Part shown: positions 46,428 to 56,331 of the stretch, one piece after another
Layout of the letters: each line of letters starts with the position of its first letter
Position numbering within the stretch: the first letter of the stretch is position 1
From: Candidatus Spechtbacteria bacterium
Lineage (GTDB): Bacteria > Patescibacteriota > Minisyncoccia > Spechtbacterales > JACPHP01
DNA: 64,000 nt
Direction: 5' to 3'
Assembly (NCBI GenBank): GCA_016188605.1
Contig: JACPHP010000015.1
Coordinates: forward strand, 18,833 to 82,832
Notes under the pieces: model-generated
Seen by the model: the letters and a program-made list of their open reading frames with translations, nothing else
What the model was told of the DNA's origin: nothing
Database searches by the model: none
Translations under genes and position numbers: made by a program

Positions 46428-47111
46428 CTATCCGTTAATATCTTTTTTAATCCCTTCCAAAATTTCGCGGGCTACTCCCTGGCCACCGAGGCCGAAGGCT
46501 AATCCGCTCGCCAAGGCAAGCATGGCAACAATGCCCATAAACAACGTGTTGACCATGGCTGTTGCAACGCCAAGCTGGTTTAATGCGGCTAGAATACCAA
46601 ATGCCCACACAGCCCAACGCGTCACCAAGCCCACAAAACGAGATGAGCCACCAAGTTCAGTTGCCTGTAATGCTGTGCGTGTAGCTTTCTCTAAGAAATC
46701 ACCGAGAATTGCCGCCACCACAATTACGAGAGCCGCGACTACTATATTAGGAATATAGAGCACTATTTGCTGCAAAAATGTTGCGACAGCAGTTAACCCC
46801 ATAATCTCTACCGCGGCCATAAAGAACGCGATGACGAAAAACCATTTCACCAGCATGCCGAGTAAAGAACTTATTTCAATCGTCATGCCTGCGCGATGAA
46901 GCATTTGCGTTACAGAAAGCTGGCTCATAAATTTATCCAGCTGCGCCATTTGCAAAAGGCGCGTTACAACCATACCAAAAGCGACCGCAATAATCCAACC
47001 TACAATAAATACAATGATTGCCCCGAGAAAACTCGGAACGAATTGCATAAAACCTTGCCAAATTTGCTGCAAGGATACAACTACTACTTCACTCCATTGT
47101 TGTACTAACAT
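46428..47111 (-). CDS. Conserved TM-helix repeat protein (CmpX / small mechanosensitive channel-related)
   Basis: FVPSFLGAIIVFIVGW and YIPNIVVAALV repeats; LAFGLGG C-terminal motif. Confidence 0.8.
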   Translation of the reverse strand: MLVQQWSEVVVVSLQQIWQGFMQFVPSFLGAIIVFIVGWIIAVAFGMVVTRLLQMAQLDKFMSQLSVTQMLHRAGMTIEISSLLGMLVKWFFVIAFFMAAVEIMGLTAVATFLQQIVLYIPNIVVAALVIVVAAILGDFLEKATRTALQATELGGSSRFVGLVTRWAVWAFGILAALNQLGVATAMVNTLFMGIVAMLALASGLAFGLGGQGVAREILEGIKKDING

Positions 47112-47301
47112 AATGTATATTTTAAAGAGAATAAATCTCAGTTAATTTTATTAATTATTTGAATATCGACGTTAGGTAAAAAGTACAAGACCTTTCTAAT
47201 AACATTATAGCAGTAATTCAGCAGAATTTAATATAGCTCTGTGGATAACTATGGCAGAGGAGTTGCCGCGCTAGCGCGGCAACTCCTCTGCCATCAATTA
47301 T

Positions 47302-47778
47302 TTACGATAATCGTTTAACTGATGTATACTCGAGAACTGATTGCACTAACCACGCAAACGTAATCGCAATTACAATGCTACCGATAATATCAACCCCGTG
47401 GTGCACGCCAACGTAAATTCGTGAAAAACCTACTATAATTGTCAACGCCCATAGCGCAATGCTAACTTTTTTATTAAACGGCCAAAGGGCAGCTGCAATC
47501 GCAGCGCTAATCAGTGTGTGATCGGAGGGAAAACCATTATCCGCCACATGCGCAATAAGCGGAGTGAAGCCATCAGTTACGAACGGCCGCGGGTAATAAA
47601 AGAAAAATCCCAAGATTTTTGCCGCGAGATAGGTCAACGGCAAAGCCAGCACAGCAAAAACAATCATCCGCTTTTGCACGTCACGCTTTTGCAACATAAG
47701 ATATGCTAACGCGATACCAATAATGGCAATAAAAAGATACTTAGCAGATAAAATAAAGAATAGAGAAGCTATGTCCAT
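47302..47778 (-). CDS. PAP2 phosphatase (BcrC-like undecaprenyl-diphosphatase)
   Basis: K......PRPF, FPSDH and SRIYVGVHH..D motifs. Confidence 0.88.
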   Translation of the reverse strand: MDIASLFFILSAKYLFIAIIGIALAYLMLQKRDVQKRMIVFAVLALPLTYLAAKILGFFFYYPRPFVTDGFTPLIAHVADNGFPSDHTLISAAIAAALWPFNKKVSIALWALTIIVGFSRIYVGVHHGVDIIGSIVIAITFAWLVQSVLEYTSVKRLS

Positions 47779-48008
47779 AATATTGAAGTTCACGACCCAT
47801 ATTAGCACGCGTTGAAGAAAGAAAAAAGGCCACCTACAAATAGAAAAACTCGCCTATGGCGAGTTTTTCTATTTGTCTGGTCAAGTCTAATACTCAAAAA
47901 ATTAACTACGCGAGGGAGTATGAAAAATGGTCGTTAAAATAGACAATATTTCGAATACTGCAAGAATCGGACTCCTCTCGCGATAATAAGCGTTAGCATT
48001 TATAGCTT

Positions 48009-48048
48009 TGGTGGACCATGGGAGAATCGAACTCCCATCTCCCGGATG
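48009..48048 (-). repeat. Duplicated 3' half of tRNA-Ala (att-like)
   Basis: Identical to 48127-48166, from the anticodon loop to CCA, plus similar downstream flank. Confidence 0.8.
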
Positions 48049-48200: not shown

Positions 48201-48519
48201 AAATTTTGAATATTTTGTTAAATATCCTCACTCCGCTGCGCTGCGCTCGGTGTAATCAAAAGAGGTGCACTGGAAAGTTTTCAGCCTGAGGCTGATCCGC
48301 CTCTGGCGGAAAACCGCCTCGCTAAAGCGAGAGGCCAAACCTAAACTTTCCGACGAAAGCCAAGCAGTTGGCTTTCGTCCTCTGCCACTAAGCTAATGGC
48401 CCAATGCGCGCAAATTACAAAGCACAGAACACAAAAGCCAAACAAACCACAAAAGCACAAAATTACAAACACGAAACGTTTGGGATTTGTAATTTGTGTT
48501 TTGGAATTTACAAACCTAG

Positions 48520-48711: not shown

Positions 48712-48739
48712 TTGACTTATAGTTTAATCGTTTTATAAT
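48712..48739 (+). promoter_or_regulatory. Putative promoter of the nucleotidyltransferase gene
   Basis: TTGACT-16 nt-TATAAT. Confidence 0.5.
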
Positions 48740-48821
48740 CACGACACTCTCTTGAACTGCACAGAAATGCAAACGAGAAGCTGTATTTTCACAAATTATA
48801 ACAATCGAAAGGAGGTATCTG

Positions 48822-50645
48822 GTGCTAACATCATTAGTTCCAGTCGAGTCATTACTCGACCCCGTTCTTGCTGCCGCAGTATGGCCTGAAAGTATTACAA
48901 GCAATGAAGTTTTCAAACAACAGCTTGAACGGCGCAGGGAGCTGATAAAACGCCTCGAAGACGTCATTTGCTCTCTGCCCCGGCCAGATATGCCTATCGG
49001 GACAGCTATTGATCTGGGGTATATCACCGAGGAACAAGTTGCGGCACTCTATGAATCTCTAAGCGATTTGCTGCAAGACCCGTACTACAAGCGCATTGTC
49101 TTCTATCTTCCATTTGAATTCTTGCCCAACAGAACGTGGGACCATTTCGGGGAAAAACTCCGACAGGTCGCTAGACTATTTAGGCAGGTATACATGGATG
49201 CTTGGTGGCATCTGCTTCTAGTGCAAGACGTACGCGCCAATTTCGTAGATGGCGACGTGCTTGAAGTAGGGCAGAGAGTCGGCGACTTGCCGCGAGTAGT
49301 GAAGGCGGCTCATCTCATACCCAAGCTCGTTGAAAACGGCTTGCTAGAGATTGAGGACGTCATATCTCTCATGGAAAAAGCCAACGATCAGGTGCTGAAA
49401 GATAGCATTGCCGATGCGCTCCCCGTTCTAGCAGATATGGGATTTATTCCAGATACAGAAGCTGACACAGAATCAGCTGAAGCAACACCAAAGCCGATTA
49501 CGCTTACATATGTTCGCAAAAAATTGGATAAAGCGTTCTCTAGAATAGATACTGAAGATTTCGGCAGTATCACGAAGGGTCGAAAAAATTGGCTTGTACA
49601 AAAAAAGAGGCAAGAAGCCATCGATGCCGCTGGAGAAGATATATGCACAGCAATCGTTCGAGGAGAGCTCTCTAATGAAATAACGGCGAGCTTTCTCGCT
49701 TACGGAGATTCTGCTATGCAGCGAGTGCTTGTCGAAGGAATTAGAGCGGCCATTGAGTCCGTCGCGCTAACTAACGTTAGCAGGGCGCACGCACTGTACG
49801 CTCAGTATAAAGAAACTTTGCTAGCACTTTGGGAGAGCGACGATCCTGATATCGGGGAAGCGCTATCCAAAACTTTCCGCCGGCTCCATTACCTCGGTAT
49901 TGTTGATGACCAACGGCTGTCGGAGTTAGGAATAGTCATTCCACGTCTCGCAGGACCTTTCTCTAAAAATCTTAGGTCAATGGGAAAGGACTTGCGCGAT
50001 ATAGAAACGATGGCCGCGTCTATCAAATGCAACAGCGAGCTGTCGCGGCTCATATACCCGGGGGTTCTCATGTACGGCTCGCGCATCAAGGGATACGGCG
50101 CGCAAAATTCTGATATTGACCTTGCCGTATTTGTGAGGCCGGGAACGCCTTTTGCTGGCAGGTCGGAGCTACAAAAACTACTTGGACAAACTTTCGCGCA
50201 TAATGCGATTCGCGGCCAAGTTGTTGAATTCTGGCTGGAAGAAAAGGGCGAGATACTTCGAATTCGTGACTTCAATAGTTCTGATGTATATCTGGGAGAA
50301 AGCTATTGGACACATGTCCTGTTTGGCGCCGTATGGATGGGCGGCGATGATACAATACGTGAGTTGTATGAAAAACTGCTGACTCCATATATGCGCGATG
50401 ACGGTAATATAATTTTTGGCCGCGGCGCAATAAGCATCTACTTGGAGGAAACAGAACGAGACACTCTACAGTACAGGTTGATGCATAAAGGATATGAACG
50501 ATTCTTCCCGCCATGCGGCGGCATACACACACCCCATTCAGATAGAATTAATGATAGTAGCATGTTCTGGGATTCGGGATACAGGCAACTTGCAACAATG
50601 CTGTTTGTAAGCAGAGTTTTTCTGCCGAATATCCCAGTTGTATAA
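48822..50645 (+). CDS. Large protein with a Pol-beta-superfamily nucleotidyltransferase domain
   Basis: MYGSRIKGYGAQNSDIDLAVF (GS...DxD) after a long alpha-helical N-terminus; SD AAAGGAGG before GTG. Confidence 0.8.
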   Translation: MLTSLVPVESLLDPVLAAAVWPESITSNEVFKQQLERRRELIKRLEDVICSLPRPDMPIGTAIDLGYITEEQVAALYESLSDLLQDPYYKRIVFYLPFEFLPNRTWDHFGEKLRQVARLFRQVYMDAWWHLLLVQDVRANFVDGDVLEVGQRVGDLPRVVKAAHLIPKLVENGLLEIEDVISLMEKANDQVLKDSIADALPVLADMGFIPDTEADTESAEATPKPITLTYVRKKLDKAFSRIDTEDFGSITKGRKNWLVQKKRQEAIDAAGEDICTAIVRGELSNEITASFLAYGDSAMQRVLVEGIRAAIESVALTNVSRAHALYAQYKETLLALWESDDPDIGEALSKTFRRLHYLGIVDDQRLSELGIVIPRLAGPFSKNLRSMGKDLRDIETMAASIKCNSELSRLIYPGVLMYGSRIKGYGAQNSDIDLAVFVRPGTPFAGRSELQKLLGQTFAHNAIRGQVVEFWLEEKGEILRIRDFNSSDVYLGESYWTHVLFGAVWMGGDDTIRELYEKLLTPYMRDDGNIIFGRGAISIYLEETERDTLQYRLMHKGYERFFPPCGGIHTPHSDRINDSSMFWDSGYRQLATMLFVSRVFLPNIPVV

Positions 50646-50746
50646 AATAAAGCCGTTGGTTTCACCAACGGCTTTTGTAATTGAAGAAGACCACCCCGCA
50701 ACTGCAAGGTGGCCTCAATTTTATAGATTAAAGAACAAAAAACGAA

Positions 50747-51892
50747 TTAGTTACCGCTACGGCGGTGTTCAGTGCCAATACCGGTAAGCCGTTTACTTGC
50801 AGACGCGCTGGCGCTGAGCTGGTCCCAGGGAATCTGGGAGCCAAGCATGTACAGCGCGCCAAAGTACTGCAATTCTTCATTGCCGGCTGGCTGATCCTTG
50901 ACCCGCATGACCGCCAACACGAATCGAGTCAGGTTGGTCTCCAGCCGCGGATACGTGGCAGAAACCGCTACACCGAGCTGTCGAATCATCTGGTCACGGT
51001 TAGCGGCACCGATCAACGCTGGCAGACGGGTATTTTCCAGGGTTTCTTTGATCTTGGATGCGTCATAAGCGAGCGCAGCCGCGATCTGAACTCCCGTTCC
51101 CGCAAAAACCTTGTTTACAGAATCGGCCATTGCATCTGCTGCGTCACGCAGCCCGCCTGTATCCGGCGGCTGCATCATGCCCGAAGGCATAGCGCCACCA
51201 CCGCCGACCATCGCCATCATGGCATTCATCATAAGAGCAGGATTTGCTGCGCCCTGCACCCACGCATCCTGCCAGGATTTAAGCTGTCCATAGAAAGTCG
51301 TAATCGCTGGCCAAAGATGCTCATCAATGCGCTGAAAAAGCTGCTTCTTTCGCGCTTCAGTCACATACGAACCATCCAAACCGTCGATCGCCGCAAAGAT
51401 CTCAGCATAGCTGCGTCGCGTCATTTCCTTTCGAAGCTTAAAAAACTCCGGATCAACCTGCTCTTCGTTCGTATCCGCAAATCTCTCCATCAAGCCAGCG
51501 AGCACATCCGGGATACTGAAGAGGCCTGCCCGGTATGCCAGTGCCGCCCGAACTGCCGAAATAACAGTGGATTGATCAACCTTGAGGATTCCACCAGTTC
51601 GAAGCGCTTCCAGCCAAGAAGCATCGGTGGGCACTGCGGGAAGCACAGCATCAAAAGAAATGGCTCCCATTGTACTTACTGCGGGCGGCTCAGCCACTGG
51701 CTTAGCCGGTGCAAGCGCTTTGAGCAAATTCCTTGCCGGCAATACTTTCATGCCGACTCCGACGAGGTCTTGCTCTGTCAAACCAGCCAGATCTTCCACG
51801 GTCGTAGCACCAAGATCAGAAATAATCTTCTCAATCACTTCAGATGCAACGCCCATAGACTCAAGTTTGGCAGTTACTTCAGTGACTTCCAT
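50747..51892 (-). CDS. Hypothetical protein with N-terminal SAM-like helical domain
   Basis: LESMG...DLAGLTEQDLVGVGMKVLPARNLLKAL, then Pro/Ala linker; SD AAAGGGG. Confidence 0.7.
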   Translation of the reverse strand: MEVTEVTAKLESMGVASEVIEKIISDLGATTVEDLAGLTEQDLVGVGMKVLPARNLLKALAPAKPVAEPPAVSTMGAISFDAVLPAVPTDASWLEALRTGGILKVDQSTVISAVRAALAYRAGLFSIPDVLAGLMERFADTNEEQVDPEFFKLRKEMTRRSYAEIFAAIDGLDGSYVTEARKKQLFQRIDEHLWPAITTFYGQLKSWQDAWVQGAANPALMMNAMMAMVGGGGAMPSGMMQPPDTGGLRDAADAMADSVNKVFAGTGVQIAAALAYDASKIKETLENTRLPALIGAANRDQMIRQLGVAVSATYPRLETNLTRFVLAVMRVKDQPAGNEELQYFGALYMLGSQIPWDQLSASASASKRLTGIGTEHRRSGN

Positions 51893-51914
51893 TTTCTTTA
51901 CCCCTTTCGCGGTT

Positions 51915-53309
51915 CTACCTGCACATCTTATCCCGCTCGGTACTTCCCAGCGAGATCATTCTAACTTGCACTCCCAGCTTTTCTCCAATTATACTGGCAC
52001 AAAACGAGTAAAGCTCGCTTGGTGTGGCGGGCGATGGAACTTTCAGGGTCGTAATTTCCGGCTTGCAGCGCGAAAGCTGTTTGCCGAGCGATTCCTGATA
52101 TTCCAACTGATTGTTATCCGTTCCCACACGGACTTTGATTGCGCCCGTGGGCGTAAAATATGTAGGATCGTCCGCGCCGAGATAACGGTCGCATATACGC
52201 CACTCTCCGTTAGCCACAATTTGATCGAACCATGTGACGGCCAGGCCATTGAATGCATTTGGGCCGCCGCAAACTTCTATAGCGTAACGAAGTAAAACGA
52301 GATCCAGCGCCCCTACGCGCACTTCTCCCTGATAGCGGTTGCTTTCTTTGTGACTGCCTGGAAGCAATCTTTCTGCCATCTCGGGATTGGCAGTAGGCAT
52401 CGGACCCGCACCGTGGCGAATTGCGTATGCTCGGAACACTCCGAAATTCACAATCTCTCCGTCGTAGCCAGCATCTATAAGCATCGCTTGCGTAAAGCAC
52501 GGCAATGTTCGAATGGCGCTTACGTGCGGATAGAAACCGTGAAAGTGATCGGTGATAACTCCGTGCGAGCTTTCAACTACAACCACACCGTCCCGAGCAA
52601 GGACTTCTCGCTCAAGATATTCATGGCCGACAATCTTAGCTCGCCGCGATACTTCTTCAAACCGTTCGGCAATATAGTCGAGGAAGCCGTCATCATAAAG
52701 AAGAGCAACTTCCTTTTGCATCGCCTCACGGTCGCTAGGCAAGAACTCGCCGCCAATAGTCTCGTTGAGATCGCTGCGTATTTGCTCTCGCACGCAAACA
52801 AGCAAATCTTTCAGATCGGGCCGCGACAAATCGCAGGCTCGAATCGTAAGATCCGGATACTGTTGCAAATAGCGATACGCTTCACCAACGCCTGTGCCAA
52901 TCGTGCCGCGAGGATTATTACCACGTGACATTTCTTTCAGGCGCGACGCAATTCCGTGATAAGGCGTGGCGCACAATGCCATTTCATCTACCGTCAGCAG
53001 ACCAAACGGATTGTGTATGCCGTGCTGATATCGAAGTGCGTCAGACTCATTAAGTAAACCTTCTGGAGAAACGATAAACCGAGCGGAGATATGCGTGTTA
53101 ATGCCTTCGAATGTGCCGCATCCCCACTGGCTGAAAGCAAAGCTCTCGCCACGCGAAGTGCGGACACCGTGGCTTCCCTGCGCGCCTCCGACTTTCACGA
53201 CGGTGTGGGCACGCATCATTGTTGCGATTTTGTGCACCACACCGCCCTTGCCGCCGTCACCAGGACCGAGGTCGGTGACGGTGTAGACTTTCTTGGTCAT
53301 CGTCGCCAC
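51915..53309 (-). CDS. Divergent adenylosuccinate-synthetase-family protein (start may be ATG 53300)
   Basis: DLGPGDGGKG P-loop, GGAQGSH, RGTIGTGVG, RAYAIRHGAGPMPT, RVGALD, SLGST. Confidence 0.85.
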   Translation of the reverse strand: MATMTKKVYTVTDLGPGDGGKGGVVHKIATMMRAHTVVKVGGAQGSHGVRTSRGESFAFSQWGCGTFEGINTHISARFIVSPEGLLNESDALRYQHGIHNPFGLLTVDEMALCATPYHGIASRLKEMSRGNNPRGTIGTGVGEAYRYLQQYPDLTIRACDLSRPDLKDLLVCVREQIRSDLNETIGGEFLPSDREAMQKEVALLYDDGFLDYIAERFEEVSRRAKIVGHEYLEREVLARDGVVVVESSHGVITDHFHGFYPHVSAIRTLPCFTQAMLIDAGYDGEIVNFGVFRAYAIRHGAGPMPTANPEMAERLLPGSHKESNRYQGEVRVGALDLVLLRYAIEVCGGPNAFNGLAVTWFDQIVANGEWRICDRYLGADDPTYFTPTGAIKVRVGTDNNQLEYQESLGKQLSRCKPEITTLKVPSPATPSELYSFCASIIGEKLGVQVRMISLGSTERDKMCR

Positions 53310-53316
53310 CTTCCTC

Positions 53317-53356
53317 GGTACGCCGAAGTCTCGCTTGGCGAGACTTCGGCGTACCT
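53317..53356. repeat. Strong intergenic hairpin abutting the SD of the PurA-like gene
   Basis: GGTACGCCGAAGTCTCGC-TTG-GCGAGACTTCGGCGTACC. Confidence 0.7.
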
Positions 53357-53379
53357 TTCAATCTTGATTTGGTAACTGG

Positions 53380-54537
53380 CTAGAGCCAGTTGGGTCCGTC
53401 GTCGGAGTCCTCGTCTTCGGAATCTCCAGAAGTAGCCGAATCAATTTCACTAGGATCGACCGGCCAGAGGTCGGTCTTTTCCCTGAAAAGATCGCCGGCC
53501 TTCGGAAGCTTATCGAAGTTCGGAGAAAGCATCTGAGCTCCGAGAGGAATATGCGCAACTGCGTGAATAATCTGACGCGCACTGAATTCTGAAACATTAT
53601 GCTCCGTAAGAAATTCCAAAGCAGACCCCAGGCTCAGCACGCCCTCCATGAGACCGATGATTATTGCCTTTACACAGTGCAGGTTGTTCGTACCTTCAGG
53701 AAGCATAACGAAATGACCAGCTCCATACAAATCGCTCCACTGATCTGCAACATCCCGACGATTTCCAACCTGCAAAAAGAAGGCATGCGCCTTGGTCTGT
53801 AGATCCCTGACTACTTGCGCGGTGTTAGGCAGTTTTCCATTACTGAAGTCATAACCATTTTCTTTGGCATGCTCCAGTACGTCATCTCCGTAAATCTTCT
53901 TCAGCCAACGCGGATCGATAGTTTCAACGATCGGCTCGTCAGAGATCGTGAAGTGATAGTACTTCAAGCCCCATCGGTTAATCGCTGCATTAGTCAAGTA
54001 CACAGCGCCGAAAAGACCGAACTGTGGATCTTCCTTGCCGTTACCTTGACCCCTACGGCCAGGCACTAAATGAGTCATCTGGGAAGCAATTTTCTCGTCC
54101 ATCTCAAATTGAGTACGACATAGCACAGGCACGTCTTCTCCATCTTCAACGTCGTTGAATATGGCAGTTGCAATCTGAACGTCATATCGACCTAAAATAG
54201 GACGACTGCCGCTGGTCAGCATCTCGTAAGAACTAGGCAAGACATCAAATGCTGTATCTACGTTGCCCCCCATAGAACCGGTTGTATCTAGCAAATCTTC
54301 TTCAGCCATAGGAATACCGCAAGTCAGGACCCATAAGTTACCGCGCTTCTCAAAACGCGGCAGAGATCGACGAATGGGCCCGAGATGAGCAGGTCCTTTC
54401 GGATCCACCAGCGGATCTAGACCTTGTCCTTGGTGCATTCGCTCTTCAGCACCGCTGGTAGCTTTCTTGGTTCCATTAGACGTAGCGCTATAACGAACTC
54501 CGGTATAACCAGACCTTGAAAATGTATTCTTCCCCAT
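53380..54537 (-). CDS. vWA-domain protein
   Basis: MIDAS-like DTTGSMG, QFE.D..I, G.GNGKE, FTISDE. Confidence 0.75.
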   Translation of the reverse strand: MGKNTFSRSGYTGVRYSATSNGTKKATSGAEERMHQGQGLDPLVDPKGPAHLGPIRRSLPRFEKRGNLWVLTCGIPMAEEDLLDTTGSMGGNVDTAFDVLPSSYEMLTSGSRPILGRYDVQIATAIFNDVEDGEDVPVLCRTQFEMDEKIASQMTHLVPGRRGQGNGKEDPQFGLFGAVYLTNAAINRWGLKYYHFTISDEPIVETIDPRWLKKIYGDDVLEHAKENGYDFSNGKLPNTAQVVRDLQTKAHAFFLQVGNRRDVADQWSDLYGAGHFVMLPEGTNNLHCVKAIIIGLMEGVLSLGSALEFLTEHNVSEFSARQIIHAVAHIPLGAQMLSPNFDKLPKAGDLFREKTDLWPVDPSEIDSATSGDSEDEDSDDGPNWL

Positions 54538-54567
54538 ATTATTCGCCCCTTTCTTTGCTATACACGC

Positions 54568-55380
54568 CTACAATGATTCCGTAGTGAAAGGATGATACTT
54601 GCGCTCCCAGAGCAAATCGATTAGTTCATAGAACGCCAAGTGCGCTCTTTCCGCGTTGCTCTCGCTACCGCGGGCTAGACGCCAAAGATAGTCTGTGTAC
54701 CTACGAAAAGCCTCGTCGCCGTCATTTGGGATTGTACCCGTTTTTAGGTCGCCTCCCAGCGCAACAACAACCGATTGCGCCGCTTGAGAAATCTCTTGGC
54801 GCCTAACCTCTACGGGAACTGTGTCGGTATGTATCTGCGCGAATGACCATTCAAAAATCACCACATAGTGTTCCTTCGGCTCAATCACTATATTCTTCCC
54901 GCTCAACAAGTTAACCGAGATTCCTTCGTTGTGCAAGAACGCAAGCAACTTGAGAAGTTTGCCCATAATCCATGCGCTAGTGCGCAAATCAACCCGCAGG
55001 CGGTCTTTTGCCGTGATGTTAATCAGCGGCACCATATCGCCTACATTCTCTACATTCCTAAACGCAAAAACATTAACTTGACGCCCGCCCTGCTCAGTAC
55101 AGATGAAGCTATCCATAAGCTCGGGGAAACCAAGCTGGTAGTTAAGAGGTTCATCGGGACGAGCGTACTCCACTTCGAGCTCTTCAGCACGGCGCTGCAG
55201 TTCTTTAAGAATATAGGCGGCACGCTGAAGCGCGCCGTTGTCCTTAGTTTCGTTAGCAATCTGCAAAATATATTCGCGCTTTACTCCTTCCTGCGTACAT
55301 AGGTAAAGCCGATATTTGCCGGCTTCTGCTACCTTTTTGCCGACTTGATAAACGTGATGACCATTGCGTATAGTGATCAC
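54568..55380 (-). CDS. Protein-kinase-fold protein, probably catalytically inactive
   Basis: YQVGKKVAE...YRLYLC, FPELMDSF, WIMGKLLKLLAFLH..G...NIVI; HRD and DFG replaced; start moved to GTG 55380 after AAGGAGG. Confidence 0.7.
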   Translation of the reverse strand: MITIRNGHHVYQVGKKVAEAGKYRLYLCTQEGVKREYILQIANETKDNGALQRAAYILKELQRRAEELEVEYARPDEPLNYQLGFPELMDSFICTEQGGRQVNVFAFRNVENVGDMVPLINITAKDRLRVDLRTSAWIMGKLLKLLAFLHNEGISVNLLSGKNIVIEPKEHYVVIFEWSFAQIHTDTVPVEVRRQEISQAAQSVVVALGGDLKTGTIPNDGDEAFRRYTDYLWRLARGSESNAERAHLAFYELIDLLWERKYHPFTTESL

Positions 55381-55435
55381 CGAATTTCCCTCCTTTCGTA
55401 CTTGTATTGTAAAGGGACACAATAAACTAGTGCTG

Positions 55436-55464
55436 ATAGTATTGTGTATAACCTGTCTTGTCAA
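55436..55464 (-). promoter_or_regulatory. Promoter of the kinase-vWA-PurA-like operon
   Basis: TTGACA-17 nt-TACTAT. Confidence 0.65.
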
Positions 55465-55498: not shown

Positions 55499-55617
55499 GT
55501 CATTGCGAGCCCCAAGGGGGCGTGGCCCGCCAGCAACGCCTTAAGCGTAGCTTTGGCGGGCTGGCAATCCCGCTCGTATGTGGTAACGAGATTGCTTCAC
55601 GCTACGCTCGCAATGAC
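55499..55617. repeat. GTCATTGCGAG...CTCGCAATGAC REP-type element with a nested second palindrome
   Basis: Terminal inverted repeats with inner GCAATC/GAGATTGC; CCCGCCA...TGGCGGG inserted inside. Confidence 0.7.
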
Positions 55618-55950
55618 GTATAATAAGATTTTGATATAGGGGGTGTGGGGGGTTACCATAGCGACGCATTATATGGCATGATTCCTAATGCTCAATATAT
55701 TTTAAAAGAACTTTATTTAAGATTAGCAAATGGTGATAATAGTGTCAATAGTACACTATTAACAGGTTAAAATTTTATGAATTATTTATGCGGTTTTGAA
55801 TTTCACTTATCATACACGGCCGTGTATGATAAGTGAAATTCAAAATGTTAACAAAATAATCCACCTATGATAAAGCAGAGGCAATAAGTATCACAAACAA
55901 AACAAACTAGTTCTTCGGGGACGGCAGAAATGCCGTCCCTTTTTCATACA

Positions 55951-55987: not shown

Positions 55988-56331
55988 AACTGACAGAATC
56001 ATTGCGTAAAGAAAATTTCTTATCCGCCTCAGGCGGAACATTGAACATCTAAGAGTTGCTCCAAATTGGTAACTCTTTTCTTGCGAAAAGAGATTTTAGT
56101 CTCAGACATTTGAAGGCTTTGAGACTAACGCCTTGCCTACCTTTAGCTAATCATACAGAAGCTTTTCCGCCAAAGGCGGATCAGCCTCCGGCTGAAGCGA
56201 AGGCGGGCAGATATTAAAGCACGAATTCGATGCTTCAATATCGTCGACTCCCGATATTGTATCAAGCAAAAGCTTAATAAAAAATCAAGAAAAAATGATC
56301 CATCCACAGCTTCCGCTACGGATGCCTTGTT

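Follow-up and report, generated by a model that had tools for sequence, protein, structure and literature searches.

Introduction

What does a ligase of the adenylosuccinate synthetase (PurA) fold do when it is held in a fixed operon with a kinase-like protein and a protein resembling von Willebrand factor A (vWA) domains, and what keeps such an operon in an ultra-small genome? The question is raised by a block of five genes in a 64,000-nucleotide stretch of DNA from a Candidatus Spechtbacteria bacterium (assembly GCA_016188605.1, contig JACPHP010000015.1, positions 18,833 to 82,832 of the forward strand), which is called the window below and whose numbering is used throughout. The block consists of four minus-strand genes facing one plus-strand nucleotidyltransferase gene, in a 795-kb genome of the candidate phyla radiation (CPR) type that is 98% complete. 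PurZ provides a precedent in which a PurA paralogue conceals new nucleotide chemistry, and about 200 mycobacteriophage records annotate the present ligase branch as PurA-like or as a 2-aminoadenine enzyme.

An earlier note, made from the sequence alone, regarded the block as an imported module that makes or modifies a nucleotide or protein adduct, for example in antiphage defence, rather than one for ordinary AMP synthesis. Here we compare the block across genomes, plasmids and phages. The five genes are one conserved module, the predicted active site of its ligase places that enzyme in a third functional branch of the PurA fold, and the operon is likely repressed by the regulator NrtR and switched on by ADP-ribose. 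The operator and the NAD link are absent from the earlier note and are new here. The link to NAD and ADP-ribose matters, as these are a main currency of phage-host conflict.

A conserved five-gene module

The genes and signals of the block are as follows.

54568-55380, minus strand: pseudokinase, 270 aa, with a GTG start after AAAGGAGG
53380-54537, minus strand: vWA-like protein, 385 aa, with a DxTGS motif, a conserved Met-Gly N-terminus and a WL/YL C-terminus
51915-53300, minus strand: PurA-fold ligase, 461 aa, catalytic core kept and aspartate pocket remodelled
50747-51892, minus strand: SAM-domain protein, 381 aa, with an N-terminal SAM domain and an all-helical domain without match
48822-50645, plus strand: Pol-beta-type nucleotidyltransferase, 607 aa, with an N-terminal helical domain, a HEAT-like middle (214-373) and a GS..DxD core
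50649-50675: hairpin terminator between the converging SAM-domain and nucleotidyltransferase genes
55436-55464, minus strand: promoter-like TTGACA-17-TACTAT, a consensus match
48712-48739, plus strand: promoter-like TTGACT-16-TATAAT of the transferase, a consensus match
55740-55758: NrtR-type operator with the palindrome TAGTGT-N7-ACACTA; it overlaps a TTGACA hexamer and lies 360 bp upstream of the pseudokinase gene
55668-55695, minus strand: promoter-like TTGAGC-16-TATAAT immediately downstream of the operator, a consensus match only

The layout described in the earlier note was borne out: consecutive minus-strand genes are separated by 30, 79 and 22 bp and converge on the 607-aa transferase, with stops 101 bp apart. 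The pseudokinase is taken to start at the GTG at 55380, whereas the open reading frame (ORF) list begins it at the TTG at 55536. Both promoters named earlier are present as consensus matches, against a background of 31 promoter-like sites in 12.3 kb compared with 17.4 in shuffled sequence. Strong Shine-Dalgarno (SD) motifs had been ascribed to all five genes, and this held for two of them. Matches to AAGGAGGTG span 8 nt for the transferase and 7 for the kinase, which are strong, but 5 for the PurA-like gene and 4 each for the vWA and SAM genes, which are moderate; 47 of 377 long ORFs genome-wide have at least 5 nt and 96 at least 4.

Related loci were collected by two alignment searches, one seeded with the PurA-like protein (the best 80 of 128 genome loci, together with 3 viral loci) and one with the transferase (the best 80 of 138 metagenome loci). 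Some organisms are represented in both sets, and related loci are not independent. Among the 80 PurA-seeded genome loci, the vWA gene was found in 78, the transferase in 75, the kinase in 74 and the SAM gene in 73. All five genes were present in 58 of the 62 PurA-seeded loci with enough flanking sequence, and a convergent transferase lay within 3.2 kb in 59 of these 62. Conversely, every transferase-seeded locus with 2 kb downstream (54/54) had a PurA-like gene, and 27 of the 33 with 5.5 kb had the complete set. The co-occurrence on which the earlier proposal of a single system depended is thus found, transferase included. Keeping five genes in genomes of about 1 Mb suggests that the module brings a real benefit.

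The block is nevertheless rare and patchy. In an even sample of 400 genomes of the phylum, the transferase occurred in 2, and a vWA gene lay a few kb away in the same 2; none of 40 relatives had a close orthologue; and the module genes have a GC content of 48-54% against 44% for the genome. On these grounds the block was probably imported, as the earlier note held, and import is also supported by strong SD motifs in a host whose 16S rRNA tail lacks CCUCC.

Part of the module is found beyond CPR bacteria. With profiles built from the loci, a kinase-vWA-PurA-like run was recognized in mycobacteriophage LRRHood, a Rhodococcus plasmid and an Agrobacterium plasmid, and a vWA/PurA-like pair in Vibrio phage pv27 and Rhizobium phage TM30. 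The PurA-like gene occurs in 201 Mycobacterium phage records, in one of which the neighbours were viewed. SAM and transferase profiles had no match among the tested proteins of the LRRHood, Rhodococcus and Agrobacterium loci.

Several variants were also seen. In pv27 (L183:4114-4827) and TM30 (L184:4453-5244), a similar Met/Gly-rich gene stands upstream of the vWA gene in the usual place of the pseudokinase; the pv27 copy has no Pfam match. A second CPR type has a longer kinase and a longer vWA protein, and a separate branch has the vWA, PurA-like and transferase genes without a SAM or kinase match. The loci of these two kinds are L098, L104, L110, L145, L164 (second PurA-like copy); L137, L143, L144 and L158. 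A gene for a pyruvate-kinase/aldolase-type barrel recurs in 14 loci, mostly those of the second CPR type or the kinase-less branch.

A third branch of the PurA fold

The PurA-like protein matches PF00709 above cut-off (E 8e-37) but falls well under the models of the characterized enzymes, with 82.6 bits against a cut-off of 395.55 for purA and 21.4 against 300 for PurZ (NF038379). Residues were mapped in an alignment with E. coli PurA, phiVC8 PurZ and the canonical PurA proteins of four relatives, in E. coli numbering, and were counted over 108 rows of the clade, with 12 more divergent rows counted apart. The ligase retains D13, K16, H41, G302, R305, D333 and S414, with D13 in 107 of 108 rows and K16 and H41 in all 108, and the GTP loop GDxGKG is present. 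Since D13, K16, H41, G302, R305 and D333 are kept, the enzyme can probably still carry out phosphoryl transfer.

The aspartate side, in contrast, has been rebuilt. At V273, T300 and T301, which we take to be aspartate-pocket positions, the clade has His (108/108; H296 is the equivalent of V273), Tyr, Trp or Phe (108/108) and Gln (104/108), respectively, and T129, presumably the residue for the 5'-phosphate of inosine monophosphate (IMP), is retained in a single row of 108. R131, Q224 and K331 are also changed, the last-but-one to a His that is invariant in CPR copies. The new His273 and Gln301 are common to the phage, Rhodococcus and Agrobacterium copies, and the pocket is canonical in the four relatives' PurA in the same alignment. 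R303, which contacts aspartate in the PurA family according to the part of PMC8342488 consulted, is variable. The Ser that phiVC8 PurZ shows in the D13 column is absent from the ligase.

The genomic context agrees with this picture. No PurB (Lyase_1) match was found in the 98% complete genome, nor PurH or a second PurA-family gene, and PurB was likewise missing from the two other sampled carriers of the module. Because the aspartate pocket is remodelled, the PurZ Ser is absent and the genome lacks PurB, PurH and another PurA-family gene, both ordinary AMP synthesis and 2-aminoadenine synthesis are unlikely, the first as the earlier note had anticipated. Its premise that CPR bacteria generally lack de novo purine synthesis stands only in part: PurH and PurB are indeed missing here, but a PurF-like gene is present (G000:C1:15024-16574, E 1e-86, under cut-off), and a weak PurA-family match occurs in 9 of 15 relatives from the same order, canonical in the four inspected. 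Of three such relatives tested for PurB, two have a canonical PurA without a PurB match.

NrtR operator and link to NAD

NrtR sites have a GT-N7-AC core, and ADP-ribose is the releasing effector, as reported in the portion of PMC2330246 at hand. The palindrome at 55740-55758 is the sole copy of TAGTGT-N7-ACACTA without mismatch in the genome. Two further copies have one mismatch, one of which precedes an operon of NAD kinase, NadD, nicotinamidase and nicotinate phosphoribosyltransferase (NAPRTase), and nrtR itself is present on another contig. The locus therefore has the sequence hallmarks of an NrtR regulon, namely the palindrome upstream and nrtR in the genome.

The same signal recurs across loci. 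Among spaced palindromes, GTGT-N7-ACAC ranks first upstream of the kinase genes and also upstream of nrtR. An operator with at most two mismatches stands in 29 of 98 leaders of the kinase gene, compared with 23 of 645 windows taken at random, and in 11 of 14 leaders where nrtR is in the locus; this enrichment is not a blind test, because the motif was chosen after both sets had been seen. Both module carriers in the 400-genome sample have NrtR, which occurs in 20 of the 400 overall. The commonest neighbours, by number of loci, are NrtR (25), NAPRTase (17), NAD synthetase (16), a nicotinamidase-like protein (14), ADP-ribosylglycohydrolase (9) and NadM-NUDIX (8). Outside CPR, the core is flanked by NrtR in Agrobacterium (over cut-off) and an NrtR-like gene in Rhodococcus (weak), by NADAR in the Vibrio phage, and by NUDIX and phosphoribosyltransferase (PRTase) genes in the Rhizobium phage.

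Elsewhere in the genome, an NrtR-like site with one mismatch, a boxA-like motif and a strong SD precede a gene for a Lon-like AAA protease (G000:C16:27815, L180), possibly a third member of the regulon.

Partner proteins

The pseudokinase matches a PHROG kinase (E 1.5e-11) and, by profile, CK2 (E 3.6e-6), but it does not have the residues of an active kinase: the window protein has Gln for the Lys (Q40), no HRD Asp, and EWS in place of DFG (E177). Across the family, the VAIK Lys is kept in 19 of 75 rows (Gln instead in 48), the DFG Asp in 48 of 75, and an Asp at the HRD position in 5 of 68, the catalytic Asp being missing in the other 63 scored rows. Non-CPR pseudokinases show a weak DnaJ match at the N-terminus, and inspection by eye indicates that they lack the catalytic Asp too.

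The vWA-like protein has a motif resembling a metal ion-dependent adhesion site, DxTGS, in which D84, T86, S88 and D200 are invariant (77/77); the set as a whole reads DxTxS..E..D. Its nearest named Atlas clusters are all vWA, but at scores of 0.80-0.82. One of 77 family members matches VWA_4, weakly (E 0.0074), and a comparison with PDB sequences gave no match. Glycine is the second residue in 85 of 101 proteins with starts chosen by SD, and in 73 of 77 in a second count. The N-termini usually also have an aromatic residue or Leu at position 6 and Tyr or Phe at position 11. Met-Gly was present in all five non-CPR vWA proteins inspected, and in the mycobacteriophage protein the Met of Met-Gly lies 12 codons inside the annotated start. 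In none of the other four module families does Gly rank among the five most frequent second residues.

For the SAM-domain protein, the structural model has a mean predicted local distance difference test (pLDDT) score of 88.9. Residues 1-64 form the five-helix SAM fold and superpose on SAMD5 with Z 8.0 and a root-mean-square deviation (rmsd) of 2.1 over 62 aligned residues. Most top structural matches of this region are SAM domains, with helix-hairpin-helix domains tying within 1 Z, and the whole protein has no Foldseek match at E 0.001. The idea that its helical domain is an effector-associated domain was rejected, as the Atlas scores of 0.75-0.78 are at chance level.

The transferase has the Pol-beta superfamily motif hG[GS]..DxD with a third acidic residue: G419, S420, D431 and D433 are invariant (30/30), and E469 is kept in 26 of 30. 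Its Pfam matches are under cut-off, and its PDB matches are HI0073 and GLD-2. In the model (pLDDT 87.4, pTM 0.87), residues 214-373 are HEAT-like (Z 9.6, rmsd 3.1 over 115 aligned residues), an arrangement of helices that is widespread, and whole-chain structural searches are dominated by matches to this helical middle; Foldseek with the whole chain gave no match at E 0.001. An invariant DVRANFxDG motif marks the N-terminal helical domain. A short transferase of 394 aa lacks the HEAT-like middle and largely keeps DVRANFxDG. The transferases form a closed family, in which E 0.001 takes in 564 clusters and 1e-30 takes in 464.

What the module may do

Our tentative reading, to which we give a probability of roughly 40%, is an NrtR-repressed, ADP-ribose-induced module in which the PurA-fold ligase would join a GTP-activated 6-oxopurine nucleotide to an amine other than aspartate, most likely one carried by a protein or peptide that the vWA protein presents. 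NAD breakdown or ADP-ribose release would lift NrtR, and the ligase would then make a 6-phosphoryl purine intermediate in the manner of PurA. A peptide amine would act as the nucleophile, and the foremost candidate is the vWA protein's free N-terminal glycine. Scaffold or sensor roles may fall to the SAM protein and to the pseudokinase, which in other lineages seems to be fused to a J domain, and the nucleotidyltransferase, a CPR addition with its own promoter, might add a nucleoside monophosphate to a product or protein of this pathway. The likely role would be to cope with conflict over NAD and ADP-ribose, to the use of cells and phages alike, and not to kill the infected cell. A protein or peptide amine is favoured because three partners are protein-binding modules and because the vWA N-terminal glycine stays in register across bacteria and phages; the protein-binding features are a kinase fold without the catalytic Asp, weakly DnaJ-like N-termini outside CPR, the SAM domain and the HEAT-like helices.

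The most specific form of this idea is distinctly doubtful: a PurA-fold enzyme that writes a purine nucleotide onto the vWA N-terminal glycine (N-terminal purinylation) as an ADP-ribose-triggered switch, with the CPR-specific transferase extending or reading the mark. If true, it would be a new protein modification common to ultra-small bacteria, actinobacteria and large phages.

Several observations weigh against the protein-amine reading. The main argument against the glycine idea is the set of vWA N-termini that are not Met-Gly (16 of 101), which include the whole kinase- and SAM-less branch that keeps an intact ligase site. The assignment of the vWA fold, drawn from the motif and weak matches, is a lead only. 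A pocket filled by His and Tyr or Trp would suit a peptide no better than ammonia. As for regulation, 69 of 98 kinase leaders lack a good operator, and in the window some 280 bp separate the operator from the TTGACA-17-TACTAT promoter downstream of it. Nor is the NAD link universal: at least one NAD gene was found in the flank of only 38 of 163 loci, and in just 2 of 29 loci with the short transferase, which are mostly from gut Saccharibacteria.

The close rival is repair or salvage of a small molecule, which fits the filled pocket and the missing PurB equally well and is, by itself, somewhat unlikely. Here the ligase would use ammonia or a small amine to aminate an inosine-type nucleotide in a direct reaction, either turning IMP into AMP without PurB or returning a deaminated ADP-ribose or NAD catabolite to the adenine form; the transferase would rebuild a dinucleotide, and the other module proteins would regulate. 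NrtR control beside NAD salvage neighbours, the loss of T129, and a genome with neither PurB nor a canonical PurA all speak for it, as do phage copies next to NADAR or NUDIX/PRTase genes, which recall the NAD-rebuilding phage pathways described in the available part of 10.1101/2024.02.11.579819. However, a salvage enzyme that works in one step would have little call for three protein-binding partners, a scan of 27 recurring neighbour proteins showed no glutaminase or lyase, NAD synthetase excepted, and a salvage function sits poorly with presence in just 2 of 400 genomes. If NAD repair were true, the novelty of the ligase chemistry would be confined to a variation on an established type.

Antiphage defence or alarm, in which infection-derived ADP-ribose would induce the module and the transferase or ligase would make a toxic or signalling nucleotide, is rather doubtful. 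SAM and Pol-beta domains are common in immunity, the module is rare, patchy and probably imported, and Nudix-regulated conflict systems have been described (PMC9503650, in the part seen). Nevertheless, PADLOC 2.0 returned nothing beyond weak PDC-S09 matches on the generic transferase motif (best E 4.5e-4), the module has no effector gene, and the recurrent neighbours are metabolic genes, NAD salvage among them. The core is itself found in phages (Mycobacterium, Vibrio and Rhizobium), and the vWA/PurA-like pair, in some cases joined by the pseudokinase, recurs in Rhodococcus, Agrobacterium and large phages, which argues against a plain host-only defence. The defence role suggested by the earlier note is thus not supported so far.

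It is very unlikely that the ligase is a GTPase switch whose phosphoryl intermediate is hydrolysed by water and read out by the vWA protein and pseudokinase with no ligation product. The GTP-side residues are kept while amine-side and IMP-phosphate residues are lost, and the partners look like adaptors; yet the new invariant H273 and Q301, with H224 in CPR, look like a new specificity, not a loss. An ordinary adenylosuccinate synthetase with unrelated neighbours is scarcely credible given the purA-model score, the changes at T300, T301, R303, V273, T129 and Q224, the missing PurB and the fixed five-gene context, for all that the protein passes the PF00709 cut-off and is the sole PurA-family gene in the genome.

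Surroundings of the module

The module is located in the rRNA spacer, since the 16S gene (minus strand, from 59454 via two introns to about 56296) ends on one side and tRNA-Ile (48591), tRNA-Ala (48200) and the 23S start (45770) lie on the other. Targeting of rRNA spacers was considered and rejected: none of 163 other module loci holds rRNA, so this position is incidental. A tRNA lies within 1.5 kb of the module in 11 of 85 loci. Sequencing contigs from four runs of one study cover the module without differences at flank depth, and a single 7.0-kb contig spans 48547-55551 in three of the four; among the contigs listed, none joins the module to either rRNA. Among the data sets listed as containing the module there is no RNA set, which carries no information on its expression. 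The module is not bracketed by direct repeats of the attachment-site type, and the tRNA-Ala duplications, partial copies at 47995-48048 and 48377-48404, lie beyond tRNA-Ile. A 34-nt inverted repeat, probably a dispersed one, occurs on both sides (48280-48313 with 56163-56196), and a perfect 26-bp hairpin stands directly upstream of the operator (55794-55845). Between tRNA-Ala and 23S in the same spacer (46428-47808, minus strand) are a PAP2 phosphatase gene and a gene with MscS-type transmembrane helices.

The 3' end of the single 16S gene (56331-56290, minus strand) reads ...GGATGGATCATTTTTTC, with helix 45 intact and the CCUCC anti-SD missing. Despite this, SD motifs of 6-8 nt are kept by 33 of 377 long ORFs, among them the transferase and those of the NAD operon; judged by their first residues, these ORFs are mostly accessory or metabolic-looking. 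Across loci, 78 of 101 leaders of the kinase gene have an SD of at least 5 nt, compared with 19 of 102 control stretches. Two introns lie near the 16S 3' end on the minus strand (57884-56865 and 56771-56341), one carrying a LAGLIDADG ORF (57484-56915) and the other of group I (Rfam E 3.7e-7, below the gathering score). The 23S gene is likewise split, with a group I intron at 40311-39875. In loci L002-L164, a motif within two mismatches of GYTCTTTRACAA, which we take to be the boxA antitermination consensus, stands in 50 of 103 leaders of the kinase gene (2.6 in shuffled sequence) and in 19 of 90 leaders of the transferase gene (1.7 in shuffled sequence); the copy in the window's own pseudokinase leader has three mismatches.

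Comparison with known systems

The TerY-phosphorylation triad consists of vWA, kinase and PP2C proteins. The module resembles it in that a stress operon pairs a vWA-type protein with a kinase-fold neighbour, but its kinase lacks catalytic residues, and it has a PurA-like ligase and no phosphatase. Minimal Pol-beta nucleotidyltransferases such as MntA of type VII toxin-antitoxin systems share the GS..DxD core, and there is a weak MntA match (25.7 bits against a cut-off of 60). The module transferase differs in its 607 aa and extra helical domains, and none of its four partner proteins has the HEPN match expected of an MNT-HEPN pair. In sum, the module belongs with none of PurA, PurZ, NARP1/NARP2, MNT-HEPN or the PADLOC systems. 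A full-text literature search, the coverage of which stops short of subscription journals and supplements, found no description of it, and the words 'PurA' and 'succin' were not found in the parts of PMC9503650 and PMC7824862 that were available. This suggests that the five-gene set is undescribed and new as a gene set, its chemistry being a prediction from sequence.

NrtR regulons have the same GT-N7-AC palindrome, and the genome has nrtR with a NAD salvage operon as they do; the targets named in the accessible text of PMC2330246, which contains neither 'purA' nor 'adenylosuccinate', include none of the five genes. Phages rebuild NAD through the NARP1 and NARP2 pathways, in which, as in the module, a paralogue of a housekeeping nucleotide enzyme is tied to ADP-ribose (10.1101/2024.02.11.579819, in the part consulted, where vWA does not occur). 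The Adps/Prs and Namat/Nampt families of those pathways, paired as Adps with Namat or Nampt with Nmnat, are absent from the five module proteins.

PurA itself (PF00709, TIGR00184) shares the fold family and the phosphoryl-transfer residues with the module ligase, which is about 25% identical, has the aspartate loop and V273 replaced, is unaccompanied by PurB, and stands in a fixed operon with the vWA-like and pseudokinase genes. DatZ, MazZ and DpoZ were not found among the 27 neighbour proteins scanned. Phage PurZ is alike as a PurA paralogue recruited to another reaction, with relatives in phages, as far as the portion of PMC8342488 read here shows; there, PurZ has Ser at D13 and keeps a Thr-containing aspartate loop, whereas the module ligase keeps the Asp and loses the loop.

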